The notes beneath the pieces were generated by a model. The model saw only the letters and a list, made by a program, of their open reading frames with translations. It searched no databases and had not been told where the DNA came from. Positions 10,161 through 14,166 of a stretch of DNA of 64,000 bases are shown here, piece by piece. The stretch lies in sequence record NC_054920.1, one strand, 5' to 3'. The position numbers were made by a program, and so were the translations under genes. This DNA is from Escherichia phage vB_EcoM_G9062. Positions within the stretch are counted from its first letter, which is position 1. Each line of letters opens with the position of its first letter.

Positions 10161-10631
10161 TTAATCATGTTTCCACACCCCATCGGTATTTGACCAAAGT
10201 CGCTGATTATCTGATCCTCGCCACAGCTTTTTAGTCGGAAGATTTTTCTCATACTTCCCATCAATAATAACATCAACATATTTAAGCATTTCTAGCTGTT
10301 TAATATCTTCAAACTTATATCCTGTCCACAACCAAATGCTTTTATTGGGATAAAGATTTTTAATAGTTTGAACCACAGAGTGAATCACGTCTCTGTTATC
10401 AGGATAAAGAGGGTCACCTCCGGTTATAGTTAATCCTTCTATATAATCATTATTCAAACATTCAATCAATTGTTCTAGCGTTTCACCAGTGAATGGAATA
10501 CCATTTCTAGCATTCCATGTTGATTTATTATAACACCCTTCACATTTATGCAAACAACCTGTAACGAAAAGAACGACCCTGCAACCAGGGCCATTCACAA
10601 AATCACAAGGATAAAATCTATCATAATTCAT
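10161..10631 (-). CDS. nrdG: anaerobic ribonucleotide reductase activating protein (radical SAM)
   Basis: 156 aa; CLHKCEGC radical-SAM cysteine triad; immediately downstream of nrdD. Confidence 0.9.
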   Translation of the reverse strand: MNYDRFYPCDFVNGPGCRVVLFVTGCLHKCEGCYNKSTWNARNGIPFTGETLEQLIECLNNDYIEGLTITGGDPLYPDNRDVIHSVVQTIKNLYPNKSIWLWTGYKFEDIKQLEMLKYVDVIIDGKYEKNLPTKKLWRGSDNQRLWSNTDGVWKHD

Positions 10632-12445
10632 TGATGCTTAACCCTATGCATGATTTCTTTATTTTTACCGAGATTAAATCCGCGTTCGTTCGGGTTTCCA
10701 AGATATCCGCATGTTCTTCTTATTGTGTTCATCTTTTTAGGATCAGTTTCTCCACAAATAGAACAAACAAATCCGTTTTCAGTAGGAGTCATTTCATGGG
10801 TACTTCCGCATGTAAAACACTTATCTACTGGCATGTTAACACCAAAATAATCTAAATGTTGTACAGCATAATCCCATACAGCCTCAAGACCTTTTAGGTT
10901 ATTTTTCATATCAGGAAGTTCAACATAAGAAATGTGACCACCTGTCGCAATGAAATGATATGGCGCTTCACGAGAAATTTTTTCAAACGGAGTAATATTT
11001 TCTTCTACTGAAACGTGGAAACTATTAGTGTACCAGCCTTTATCGGTAACATCTTTTACACTTCCATATTTTTCTGTATCAAGTTTACAGAAGCGATAAC
11101 AAAGGTTTTCAGCAGGAGTCGAATATAAACTAAAAGCAAATCCAGTTCTTTCAGTCCACTGTTTAAGATGAGCATTCATTTTAGTTAAAATTTCTTGTCC
11201 AATATCACGACCGACAAGAATATTCAATTCGTGAATACCAATGTATCCTAGGGACACTGAACTTCTGCCGTTTTTAAATAACTCAATTATGTCATCATCA
11301 GGTTTAAGACGAACCCCGAATGCACCTTCTTGGTAAAGAATAGGAGCTACAGTTGCTTTAACACCCTTTAAAGAACTAATTCTACGCATCAAGGCTTCAA
11401 AGCACAGATCCATTCGTTCATTAAATAGCTCAACAAATTTCTGTTCATTGAACTGTGTTCCAATATAAGAATCTAATGCGATACGAGGAAGATTCAGTGT
11501 TACAACACCGAGATTATTACGTCCATCAAGAATTTCATTACCAGTCGAATCTTTCCATACGCTCAAGAAACTACGGCAGCCCATCGGAGAAACAGGAATA
11601 GATGAACCAGTGATAGCTTTATTGTTCTTAGCTGAAATAATATCAGGATACATCCTTTTGCTTGCACACTCTAGAGCAAGCTGCTTAATATCATAGTTCG
11701 GATCGTCTTTATAAAGATTAACACCTTCTTCAACGAACATAACAAGCTTAGGGAAAATAGGAGTTATCCCATCACGACCGAGACCTTTAATACGATTTTT
11801 CAGAATTGCTTTCTGAATCATTCGTTCAGTCCAGTCAGTTCCCGTACCAAATGTAATTGTTACAAAAGGTGTTTGCCCGTTTGAACTAAAGAGAGTATTT
11901 ACTTCATATTCATAAGCTTGAAATGCATCGTATACGTCTTTTTCTGTTTTAGATTGAGCATAATTCAACGCATCGGCGATTTGCCATTTTTCTGCATCCT
12001 CAATATGTTTTGCATAGGTGCGTTTAACATAAGGAGAAAGTACTTTATCTACATTCGCAAAAGTCGTTCCGCCGTATTGGTGAGAAGCAACCTGTGCAGT
12101 AATTTGTGCCATAATTGCAGTAGCAACGCCAATTGATTTAGGAGTTTCAATCTGTGCATTACCAAGCTTAAATCCGTTCTCAAGCATTCCTTTTAAATCT
12201 ACTAAACAGCAATTAGTAAATGGAAGAGCAGGGGAATAATCAATATCATGGAAATGAATAATTCCGCTTTCATGCGCTTTCATAATAAAAGACGGGACCA
12301 TATTTTTGGCAATGTGTTTAGACACAATACCAGCCATAAGGTCCCGTTGAGTTGGAAAAACACGAGAATCTTTATTAGCATTCTCGTTTAAAAGGTCTTT
12401 ATTAGTTTTATGAATCAATCCTTCAATTTCTTTTTCAATTGTCAT
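10628..12445 (-). CDS. nrdD: anaerobic ribonucleoside-triphosphate reductase (glycyl radical enzyme), intron-less
   Basis: 605-aa continuous ORF; C-terminal glycyl radical motif RRTCGYLG and CxxC zinc site; length equals spliced T4 NrdD. Confidence 0.9.
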   Translation of the reverse strand: MTIEKEIEGLIHKTNKDLLNENANKDSRVFPTQRDLMAGIVSKHIAKNMVPSFIMKAHESGIIHFHDIDYSPALPFTNCCLVDLKGMLENGFKLGNAQIETPKSIGVATAIMAQITAQVASHQYGGTTFANVDKVLSPYVKRTYAKHIEDAEKWQIADALNYAQSKTEKDVYDAFQAYEYEVNTLFSSNGQTPFVTITFGTGTDWTERMIQKAILKNRIKGLGRDGITPIFPKLVMFVEEGVNLYKDDPNYDIKQLALECASKRMYPDIISAKNNKAITGSSIPVSPMGCRSFLSVWKDSTGNEILDGRNNLGVVTLNLPRIALDSYIGTQFNEQKFVELFNERMDLCFEALMRRISSLKGVKATVAPILYQEGAFGVRLKPDDDIIELFKNGRSSVSLGYIGIHELNILVGRDIGQEILTKMNAHLKQWTERTGFAFSLYSTPAENLCYRFCKLDTEKYGSVKDVTDKGWYTNSFHVSVEENITPFEKISREAPYHFIATGGHISYVELPDMKNNLKGLEAVWDYAVQHLDYFGVNMPVDKCFTCGSTHEMTPTENGFVCSICGETDPKKMNTIRRTCGYLGNPNERGFNLGKNKEIMHRVKHQ

Positions 12446-12915
12446 TTTAAACTCTTTCTAAGCTGCTTCTTAAATGAAGCTATTAACTGTGTTTTGGTGT
12501 CAGATTCATTATATTCAAATCCTCTTTGAAGCATCTCGGCCATCATTTCCTCTTTTCCTAAACGAGAAAATTCCTTTGATTTATCTCCAACAAAGTTAGG
12601 GTGAATATTATTTTGGGTGTAATCGGATTTTAAATAAGTAAGTAAATTTTCTAACCATTCAAGATAATCAACACCTTGTCCCTTTAAGCCAGAACGATTA
12701 AATTTATGCTTCATTTGACCTTCTGCGGCATTGCAGAGATTACAAAGCAATCCACGTATCTTTCCTGCTTTTGGTCCATTTAATTCATGGTCATGATCAA
12801 GATGATTAGCTTGAACATCAGGATTTAGTTCTCGTTGGCAAATTAAACATTTACCGTTTTGTGCATCATAAAATTTCTGTTTTTCTTCTTTATATAATTT
12901 GCCAGTCAATAACAT
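12442..12915 (-). CDS. 49: endonuclease VII (Holliday junction resolvase)
   Basis: 157 aa; MLLTGKLYKEEKQKFYDAQNGKCLICQREL... with His/Cys zinc motif matches my recollection of T4 endo VII. Confidence 0.85.
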   Translation of the reverse strand: MLLTGKLYKEEKQKFYDAQNGKCLICQRELNPDVQANHLDHDHELNGPKAGKIRGLLCNLCNAAEGQMKHKFNRSGLKGQGVDYLEWLENLLTYLKSDYTQNNIHPNFVGDKSKEFSRLGKEEMMAEMLQRGFEYNESDTKTQLIASFKKQLRKSLK

Positions 12916-12956
12916 AATAAACCCTTACCTTAAATAGATAAGGGTATTTATTATTT

Positions 12957-13133
12957 TTAAGTATTGTAAAACATTCGATGCAATCGTTTATACTGTCGAA
13001 TCATCTTTTTAGTAGGACGAGAATAGGTTCCTACGCAAGTGGTCATATGAGGGTCCGTAGAATGTCCTTTAATAAAAAGTTTCCAAACCTTACCGCCATT
13101 TAACTTTTCAGTATAAACCAATTCGGTTTTCAT
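12957..13133 (-). CDS. mini-ORF (58 aa) whose last 15 codons duplicate the 3' end of the upstream gene
   Basis: ATG at 13133 with AUUUUA-rich leader; C-terminus MIRQYKRLHRMFYNT nearly identical to the end of ORF 13170..13673 (MIRQYKRLHQMFYNT). Confidence 0.3.
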   Translation of the reverse strand: MKTELVYTEKLNGGKVWKLFIKGHSTDPHMTTCVGTYSRPTKKMIRQYKRLHRMFYNT

Positions 13134-13243
13134 TAAAATGCCTTGTCAGAAAAAGAATTTTGAGTTTTTTCAAGTATTATAAAACATTTGATGCAATCGC
13201 TTATATTGCCGAATCATTTGGTCAGAAAAAGAATTTTGAGTTT
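12957..13243. repeat. imperfect segmental duplication (about 75-bp unit; one copy carries a 135-bp insert)
   Basis: gtcagaaaaagaattttgagttt occurs at 13145-13167 and 13221-13243; ttcaagtatt(g/a)taaaacatt(c/t)gatgcaatcg(t/c)ttata(c/t)tg(t/c)cgaatcat occurs at 12957-13005 and 13169-13216. Confidence 0.7.
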
Positions 13244-13673
13244 CAAGCCATTCAATATATTCTGCCGCAGCTTGCATCAGGTTACCTTCATAATCATCAA
13301 TATCTTTTTTCAATGCCACTTTAGCTAATGCATATGAAATACGTTCACCTTGAAAAGCGGCTTTAGGCTTCTTAACATCTTGGCTAGTTCTCTCTACAAC
13401 TTCCTCGATTTCACCATTTTCAACGGATTCAGTATTCCACAAACACCAATACGTAATTGGCTTATCATAGATGTTAATAATTTTTCCATCAGAAAGTTCA
13501 ATTTCAATAATTCCAGTGTCAGGCTCTATATCATCTTCACATTCTTTTGCAAGTTCACGAACTTTAAAGACAGTACCTGCACTAAGTTCCGGCCAGTAAT
13601 TACACAGCCCTGTATCAGCACGATTAATTCTAAACCACTTATCTACTGTAATCATGTCCCATCTCCATATCAA
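13170..13673 (-). CDS. hypothetical protein (167 aa), at the position of T4 pin
   Basis: ORF between gene 49 and nrdC; start overlaps the duplicated segment; identity with pin not verifiable. Confidence 0.4.
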   Translation of the reverse strand: MIWRWDMITVDKWFRINRADTGLCNYWPELSAGTVFKVRELAKECEDDIEPDTGIIEIELSDGKIINIYDKPITYWCLWNTESVENGEIEEVVERTSQDVKKPKAAFQGERISYALAKVALKKDIDDYEGNLMQAAAEYIEWLETQNSFSDQMIRQYKRLHQMFYNT

Positions 13674-13777
13674 TTAAGTCATTTATCGTTGGTTCATTAT
13701 ATACTGTTTCTTCATCAGTGTAAACCGGTTCTTCCGGCTCTGGCTCTACAGTTTCCCATCTAGCCGCCCACCAAGGT

Positions 13778-13972
13778 TTAACCCCGAAGCTTATTAAGTT
13801 CTTCATAATCAACCCAGGATTCTAATCCTGATGGCAGGTCACATTCAATTTCCCAAAGAAGTTCTTCAATTTTATGAAGACGATCTAATTCTTCAACAGG
13901 AATAGTAACCATTGATGGAGCTCTTGCTGCACTAATATCGTATATCATATTTACCCCAGTTTGACCATGCAA
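13778..13972 (-). CDS. hypothetical protein (64 aa)
   Basis: small ORF. Confidence 0.3.
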   Translation of the reverse strand: MHGQTGVNMIYDISAARAPSMVTIPVEELDRLHKIEELLWEIECDLPSGLESWVDYEELNKLRG

Positions 13973-14166
13973 TCACCGTATTTCCACTTAGAAATAGACT
14001 TTTCACCATTAGAATAATAAACTTCGAGTTTAGCACGATTATTTTTAATTTGAATAACCTTGGCTGTCATTAAAGTTCCATACCCATAGTAAACTGCAAC
14101 TTCATCACCTACATATACCGCGCTTCCGCGGTAATCATGGATATAATCAGTTCCTTCGAGCATCAT
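13951..14166 (-). CDS. hypothetical protein (71 aa)
   Basis: small ORF abutting nrdC. Confidence 0.35.
   Translation of the reverse strand: MMLEGTDYIHDYRGSAVYVGDEVAVYYGYGTLMTAKVIQIKNNRAKLEVYYSNGEKSISKWKYGDCMVKLG

Follow-up and report, generated by a model that had tools for sequence, protein, structure and literature searches.

Between gene 49 and pin, the T4-like (Tequatrovirus) genome analysed here carries two diverged copies of the same gene end, one closing pin and the other closing a separate ORF of 58 aa (ORF58). The initial annotation explained this as a local duplication of the 3' end of pin together with a 23-bp motif, in which a 135-bp insert supplied a new start and so created a chimeric mini-ORF, with a novel 43-aa N-terminus fused to a borrowed C-terminus, and regarded it as a recombination footprint or a case of gene birth. 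The question is therefore to which of the two genes the shared end belongs, and how both copies came to lie at one locus. The window (the whole stretch of DNA that was analysed, 64,000 nt) has every gene around pin and gene 49 on the minus strand, namely nrdD (10628–12445), gene 49, ORF58, pin and 49.1. The 421 nt from 12880 to 13300 are 100% identical to the corresponding DNA of APTC-EC-2A, AV119 and AV120, and 99% identical to that of RB32 and RB33. The features of the locus are as follows.

12442..12915, minus strand: gene 49 (endonuclease VII), which anchors the locus downstream
12921..12945, minus strand: hairpin 3' of ORF58, with a 10-pair stem; it overlaps the ribosome-binding site of gene 49 and is the right-hand edge of the variable segment
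12957..13133, minus strand: ORF58, intact, 58 aa, a member of the DUF7279 / phrog_3272 family (Pfam 3e-17, PHROG 3e-34, full length)
12957..13004, minus strand: tail copy 1, the last 15 codons and stop of ORF58, MIRQYKRLHRMFYNT and stop, most likely native
13134..13144, minus strand: putative relic of the last codons of an ancestral pin, AAG GCA TTT TA(A), K A F stop, now non-coding
13145..13167, minus strand: D2 relic, a 23-nt piece of the putative ancestral pin 3' end (codons E-T-Q-N-S-F-S-D), lying beyond the present pin stop
13168..13172, minus strand: novel joint, the pin stop TGA and AA running into the relic, ACTTGAAAAAACTCAAAATTC; apparently a non-homologous join in an A-run
13170..13217, minus strand: tail copy 2, the last 15 codons and stop of pin, MIRQYKRLHQMFYNT and stop, most likely captured from ORF58
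13218..13655, minus strand: pin core, residues 1–146, PinA peptidase inhibitor I24, Lon inhibitor (PF10465, 1.6e-46, residues 4–140)

The pin ORF spans 13170–13673, and its annotated start, ATG at 13655, gives a protein of 161 aa. Its core includes the in-gene copy of D2 (13221–13243) and, at 13218–13220, the codon CAA at the fusion junction. At the other end of the relic, the ancestral pin stop overlaps the ORF58 ATG as TAATG.

The Repeat between Gene 49 and pin

Two repeats were found in this interval. The first, D1, pairs 12940–13004 with 13153–13217 over 65 nt at 82% identity in the repeat search; its core consists of the 48-nt 3' ends of the two minus-strand ORFs (12957–13004 and 13170–13217), which are identical at 42 of 48 positions and encode the C-termini MIRQYKRLHRMFYNT in ORF58 and MIRQYKRLHQMFYNT in pin, and its outer 17 nt (12940–12956 and 13153–13169) show weak similarity. 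The second, D2, is a perfect match (23/23) between 13145–13167 and 13221–13243. The region is AT-rich, and this, together with the weak outer part of D1, could suggest a chance resemblance or a fault of assembly, but the best ungapped self-match within 12900–13300 scored 33, while 300 dinucleotide shuffles gave 9.0 ± 1.2 with a maximum of 15, and the D2 23-mer has just two sites in the 64 kb even when three mismatches are allowed, the number expected elsewhere being 0. The same joint was found in about 112 independent phage records, each aligned in one piece, so that the arrangement is not an assembly artefact, and the probability that either explanation applies is negligible. The diverged repeat described in the initial annotation is thus real, and the coordinates given there for both ORFs were correct. 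Extra DNA is indeed present in the lower-coordinate copy, but it amounts to a net 137 nt and not 135, the gap between tail and 23-mer being 140 nt there and 3 nt in pin.

ORF58 and Its Protein Family

ORF58 belongs to a recognised family. It scored 62.7 bits with Pfam DUF7279 (PF23945; cut-off 24.5), residues 7–56 covering positions 1–53 of the 53-position model, and matched phrog_3272 at 3.4e-34, over residues 1–58 with a profile of 59 positions. It gave no match to PF10465 at E ≤ 1 and none to phrog_2167; ORF58 is not a Pin, and shares with Pin only the tail, which lies outside the Pin profiles. Its equivalents RB32ORF078c (an identical protein), RB69ORF087c and JS98 orf76 agree with it in position and in their full-length profile match, with no material difference. 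When the 43 N-terminal residues were used in a tblastn search they found homologues of 44–100% identity in 324 phage records from four genera (Tequatrovirus, Dhakavirus, Gaprivervirus and Mosigvirus), all at the same position, so that this N-terminus is not novel; in RB69 (Mosigvirus), JS98 (Dhakavirus) and VR7 (Gaprivervirus), for example, the homologue lies between the pin-related ORFs and gene 49. The C-terminus of the homologues always reads RPTKKMIRQ(Y/F)KR(L/F)HR-FY..., i.e., a RPTKKMIRQYKRLHR-FY tail, and ORF58 has both this basic motif (RPTKK-IR--KR-HR-F) and the conserved location, with pin on one side and gene 49 on the other. Conservation in the family is highest in the tail, where I45, R46, K49, R50, H52, R53 and F55 are invariant, and even a distant member of 54 aa, detected by an exhaustive HMM search, ends in LIRRYKRINRLF.

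Nei–Gojobori dN/dS ratios between the window ORF58 and its homologues in PP01, P8, VR7, JS98, RB69 and five IMG/VR loci (the IMG/VR scan yielded six loci only) were 0.08–0.27, and were alike for the N-terminal 43 codons and the tail, in a gene of 58 codons for which dS is saturated in the most distant pairs. The reading frame of ORF58 is under purifying selection. In the exhaustive HMM search, which covered 1.84 billion representatives, there were only 4–5 true clusters of small proteins, showing the family to be very small; the long matches were unrelated repeat proteins (as checked for P0014 and assumed for the other three), and no other fusion of the ORF58 tail was found among those representatives. 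AlphaFold2, run with an alignment of 10 sequences, predicted strands at residues 2–9, 15–22 and 31–37 and a C-terminal helix at 42–56 that corresponds to the tail, with a mean pLDDT of 81.5 for the best model and 52–67 for the other four. A Foldseek search of the PDB with this model returned nothing below E = 0.27, giving no functional lead from the fold; sequence and profile searches of the PDB had no match for Pin or the ORF58 family, nor did NCBIfam. One IMG/VR locus (IMGVR_UViG_2974497520, about 1060–1390) has a DUF7279 homologue directly 3' of a 49.1-like gene and no pin, which indicates that the role of ORF58 does not strictly depend on Pin. Our best guess is that ORF58 is a small, basic, early protein that acts on a host target.

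These results bear directly on the idea that ORF58 is a newly born chimera. When the window is viewed alone the map looks exactly like that, and some GenBank records call ORF58 a 'host protease inhibitor' owing to the shared tail. A gene born de novo would leave its new coding part without homologues in outgroups, but the supposed insert is the conserved N-terminal part of a Pfam and PHROG family, found at the same locus in four genera; the tail, moreover, is the best-conserved part of that family and is absent from Pin outside Tequatrovirus. Given also the purifying selection on ORF58, and copies that trace to different lineages (see below), birth of a new gene by local duplication is highly improbable. 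Of the two readings offered in the initial annotation, the recombination footprint holds and gene birth does not, ORF58 being an old conserved gene.

Several relatives vary in other ways. The Shigella phage sb4 has a premature TGA inside the ORF58 tail (MIRQYK and stop; locus L019, 906–1055), probably a sequence error rather than a natural truncation, because the same record also splits the annotations of gene 49 and nrdD. Another IMG/VR locus (IMGVR_UViG_2974735671) carries an extra hydrophobic ORF of 30 aa, MDALITVFWVGVVLFGLLLVLSCTAKLLGY, between its DUF7279 homologue and the gene 49 hairpin. RB69ORF089c, 5' of pin in RB69 (locus L005, 960–1076), is a truncated DUF7279 paralogue (phrog_3272, E = 1e-16) that ends in VRPTKRQLRKAKRSHRNFYREY, so that the RB69 pin has DUF7279-type ORFs on both sides.

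The C-Terminal Tail of Pin

The profile matches of pin stop short of its tail. Residues 1–146 align to phrog_2167, a profile of 146 positions, and residues 4–140 to PinA/Inhibitor_I24, while residues 146–161 match positions 43–58 of phrog_3272. By tblastn, the Pin homologues of Mosigvirus, Karamvirus (CC31) and phages of Klebsiella and Serratia align to residues 1–146 or 3–142 only, and the 15-residue tail is present on Pin in Tequatrovirus only, the distant Pin homologues being without it. In JS98, VR7 and the VR5-like locus L013, the ORFs carrying the Pin C-terminal domain end in ...FSD(E/K)(A/V)F and a stop, and in L013 FSDKAF and its stop are followed through TAATG by the ORF58 homologue, the same junction as in PP01 and SP1. 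Since ORF58 matches its family over the full length, tail included, and the Pin profiles end before the tail, the chimeric gene would be the T4-type pin and not the mini-ORF. The direction of borrowing proposed in the initial annotation is thus reversed, pin residues 146–161 matching the profile of the ORF58 family, and the tail is most likely native to ORF58. On the Pin side some residues that are invariant in the family have been lost, with R53 changed to Q in all, R46 to Q in T4 and H52 to N in ECO4, which fits a passenger sequence under different or weaker constraint.

In Dhakavirus (JS98, locus L006, 1029–1686) and Gaprivervirus (VR7, locus L007, 1056–1677), Pin is not a single gene. The first ORF there, of 57 aa, matches the Pin C-terminal domain and ends in FSDE(A/V)F and a stop with a TAATG overlap. 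The second is 90–100 aa long; in JS98 it has a weak likeness to the Pin N-terminal domain (27% identity, E = 1e-4 in a pairwise comparison) and in VR7 it looks unrelated to that domain. The DUF7279 ORF comes last, and the order of the Pin domains is permuted relative to T4 pin.

Three Allelic Layouts and the Probable Source of Each Copy

Aligning the window with RB32, PP01, T2 and T4, together with a reading of 20 related loci, revealed three allelic layouts, which could be matched to one another base for base. In the T4 type (T4, T2, G2540), a 161-aa pin ending in ...SFSD(R/Q)MI(Q/R)QYKRLHQMFYNT and a stop is followed directly by the gene 49 hairpin. In the PP01/SP1 type (PP01, P8, SP1, ZCEC14, sb4), a 148-aa pin ends in ...SFSDR(A/T)F and a stop, the TAA of which overlaps the ATG of ORF58 as TAATG, and the ORF58 tail is MIRQYKRLHRMFYNT; the individual pin ends are DRAF in PP01, DRTF in SP1 and DKAF in the VR5-like locus, each followed by its stop, TAATG and ORF58. 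The third layout, that of the window, RB32, JB75, ECO4, BCPSen003 and the IMG/VR locus L008, has a T4-type pin and stop, then AA, AAACTCAAAATTCTTTTTCTGAC (23 nt), A(A/G)GGCA / AGGACA-TTTTAATG and ORF58. Among roughly 505 records with a pin of at least 80% identity, 112 are of the window type, about 72–76 of the PP01/SP1 type and roughly 320 of the T4 type, all but the first figure being estimates from BLAST coverage and not a census. Because outgroups share both the FSD-x-x-F, TAATG and ORF58 junction and a tail-less Pin, we infer that the ancestral layout was pin (...FSD-x-x-F and stop), TAATG and ORF58, as seen in PP01, SP1 and VR5-like phages.

The two copies of the tail were then compared with genomes that have only one. 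The window pin tail differs from that of G2540, a T4-type phage, at 1 of 48 positions, and the pin tail of BCPSen003 is the same as that of G2540. The ORF58 tail differs from those of SP1 and ZCEC14 also at one of 48, in the stop codon only. Between the two copies within the window there are six differences in 48. Copies made by duplication in situ should be each other's closest relatives; here each has its near-identical counterpart in a different single-copy lineage, which argues against divergence in place. The relic points the same way as the ORF58 tail, as the relic and ORF58 of RB32 and JB75 equal the pin end and ORF58 of SP1 base for base, and the D2 relic of the window shows no difference from the matching stretch inside SP1 pin. 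JB75, ECO4 and BCPSen003 combine the T4 variant of the upstream 23-mer (AAATTTC, 22/23) with the SP1 variant of the relic (AAAATTC). Ahead of the joint, the 3' body of pin resembles that of SP1 in the window and RB32, and that of T4 in JB75 and ECO4, a mixture that indicates later homologous exchange and blurs parentage. The joint itself is identical in the window, RB32, JB75, ECO4, BCPSen003 and L008, and this identity in all sampled window-type genomes points to a single origin followed by spread.

The gene content 5' of pin and 49.1 also varies. At 13778–14166 the window has an RB69ORF091c-like ORF, annotated as 'antitoxin', and RB32ORF082c, as in RB32; in the same place T4 (locus L002, 5507–6132) has 49.2 and 49.3. 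Here too, in the same plastic region, one allele has replaced another.

Proposed History of the Locus

With good confidence we attribute the window layout to two recombination events at the pin–49 junction, a deletion that fused pin to the end of ORF58 and a later unequal join of two alleles; the order of events and the crossover mechanism are what we infer from the surviving sequences. Ancestrally, pin would have ended in ...WLE-x-Q-x-x-FSD-x-x-F and a stop overlapping the start of ORF58 as TAATG, with ORF58 carrying the native basic C-terminal helix RPTKKMIRQYKRLHR-FY. In one Tequatrovirus lineage (T4 and T2 among its members) a 137-bp deletion would then have removed the last two or three codons of pin with its stop, and the first 43 codons of ORF58, placing the pin body in frame with the last 15 codons of ORF58 to give the 161-aa PinA of T4. 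Later, a T4-type allele resembling that of G2540, broken just past its stop (...ACTTGAAAA), would have been joined to an SP1-type allele broken inside the pin end (AACTCAAAATTC...), the join falling in a run of A's with microhomology of about 1 nt. Such a join would leave a T4-type pin complete, ORF58 intact and, between them, 34 nt of non-coding DNA from the former pin end. The simplest account of this last step is an unequal, essentially non-homologous join. The motif CTTGAAA occurs near the joint in both parents and may have helped to misalign them. A clean crossover between the two CTTGAAA motifs, or an origin from a mini-circle, was considered, but the joint has three A's more than a CTTGAAA/CTTGAAA crossover would leave, and this stays a possibility only.

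The events could also have run in a different order, with a tandem duplication of the pin end relic and ORF58 in an SP1-like genome, followed by the 137-bp deletion in the upstream copy, which would give the window layout directly, and with T4-type genomes arising later by homologous deletion between the two 48-nt tails of the window layout. The final map and joint would be the same, through its direct repeats (48 nt, 87.5% identity; 23 nt, 100% identity) a window-type locus could be reduced to either of the other layouts, and recombination in T4 reportedly requires patches shorter than 50 bp (Singer et al. 1982, as cited in PMC2839356). The upstream tail should in that case be the SP1 allele, but it differs from SP1 at 5 of 48 positions and from G2540 at 0–1 of 48, unlike the rest of ORF58, which differs from SP1 at 2 of 177 nt only. 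Nor does this order readily fit JB75, ECO4 and BCPSen003, where a T4-like upstream 23-mer accompanies an SP1-like relic, and T4-type genomes would require three rare events, against one if the deletion fusion came first. We therefore regard a prior duplication as unlikely, though it is the main alternative, and prefer the deletion fusion followed by the unequal join.

Expression Signals and Stability

The 34-nt relic (13134–13167) is non-coding, and has a Shine–Dalgarno-like AAGG 7 nt before the ORF58 ATG (AGGA in RB32); a purine-rich motif of this kind occurs 4–7 nt before the ATG in every ORF58 homologue. The relic would thus act as an intercistronic leader, with AAGG or AGGA replacing the stop–start coupling that was lost. 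A promoter scan gave no minus-strand promoter-like site within 12957–13243 or between pin and ORF58. It did give a strong early-type match, TTTACA-17-TATAAT, on the minus strand at 13724–13696, upstream of pin. With no promoter between the two genes, an early-type match 5' of pin and a hairpin 3' of ORF58, co-transcription of pin and ORF58 is likely, with ORF58 probably translated on its own.

A synonymous change of TAC to TAT at 13176–13181 (minus strand), present in the window and RB32 only, turns part of the pin tail into a perfect TATAAT, some 40 nt before the ORF58 ATG. As a promoter it was rejected, there being no acceptable -35 or MotA box by eye and no entry for it in the scan list.

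Folding of the minus-strand RNA across 12900–13260 was unremarkable overall (z = -0.56 against shuffles), and only the gene 49 hairpin, AATAAATACCCTTATCTATTTAAGGTAAGGGTTTATTATG (12913–12952, minus strand), stands out. It buries the Shine–Dalgarno sequence and start codon of gene 49, appears in both the MFE and centroid folds, is conserved in RB69, JS98 and VR7, and hardly varies among Tequatrovirus, Mosigvirus, Dhakavirus and Gaprivervirus. A single Rfam hit, to ohsC, fell below the threshold (26 bits, gathering score 50, E = 0.24) and was judged to be chance.

To judge from its direct repeats, of 48 nt (87.5%) and 23 nt (100%), the layout could be unstable. An exchange between the two tails would restore the T4 type and free a circle of 213 bp; one between the 23-mers, with the loss of 76 bp, would restore the PP01/SP1 type. 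Natural genomes matching both predicted outcomes exist, though their existence does not show that they originated by such deletions.

Relation to Known Systems and Significance

The kind of event described here is well known (deletion fusion, unequal recombination, a plastic region of T-even genomes), and the locus is a new, well-resolved instance of what is otherwise ordinary modular evolution in phages. As in other deletion fusions of adjacent coupled genes, a stop–start junction would have been lost and the upstream body placed in frame with the downstream C-terminus; unlike the usual case, the pre-fusion state, the fusion, and a composite of the fusion with the intact donor all survive in sequenced relatives. 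There is also a likeness to the PeSL mini-circle shuffling of T4-type phages (Arbiol et al. 2010, PMC2839356; Comeau et al. 2014, PMC4122927), in which, likewise, small non-essential ORFs are gained or lost between close relatives in a plastic region, and the window ORF, being flanked by direct repeats, could excise as a small circle. The PeSL repeat unit, however, contains a strong sigma-70-like promoter and an intergenic stem-loop, whereas the window repeats, which consist of the coding 3' end of one gene and a fragment of another, showed neither a promoter-like site nor a stem-loop, and the founding joint is non-homologous.

The window pin is a T4-type Pin of 161 aa (91% identity class by tblastn), like T4 PinA, the inhibitor of E. 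coli Lon (Inhibitor_I24); ORF58 shares the last 15 residues of PinA and nothing of the remainder. The biochemically studied T4 PinA itself appears, from these comparisons, to be a fusion of the Pin core with a 15-residue DUF7279 tail. A literature search on DUF7279, ORF078c/ORF087c and PinA, the coverage of which did not extend to Skorupski 1988 and Hilliard 1998, yielded nothing on ORF58 or on the origin of the PinA tail.

ORF58 is already annotated in many GenBank records, besides having a Pfam DUF and a PHROG, and RB32ORF078c is described in RB32 as 'hypothetical protein; similar to RB69ORF087c, JS98orf087c-like, pin'. In OK274152.1 (APTC-EC-2A) the equivalent gene is listed twice and labelled 'host protease inhibitor', presumably through the 15 residues it shares with Pin; the label is likely to be an annotation error, and one that could propagate. 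Neither 'protease inhibitor' nor 'novel chimera' is a suitable annotation for ORF58.

It could be speculated that the basic amphipathic helix of DUF7279 is a portable host-targeting module, that the tail of PinA helps it to bind or inhibit Lon, and that ORF58 acts as a second modulator of host proteostasis, although we think this rather unlikely, and the target of ORF58 may alternatively be another acidic or nucleic-acid target. If it were true, window-type phages would have been selected to keep both a tailed Pin and the intact donor gene, and the three allelic states would be natural tail-plus and tail-minus variants of Pin. With the ancestral, fused and composite alleles all sequenced, the locus is a clean, small example of how gene ends are remodelled in T-even phages by deletion and unequal recombination, and these alleles give ready material for asking whether the PinA tail matters for Lon inhibition.
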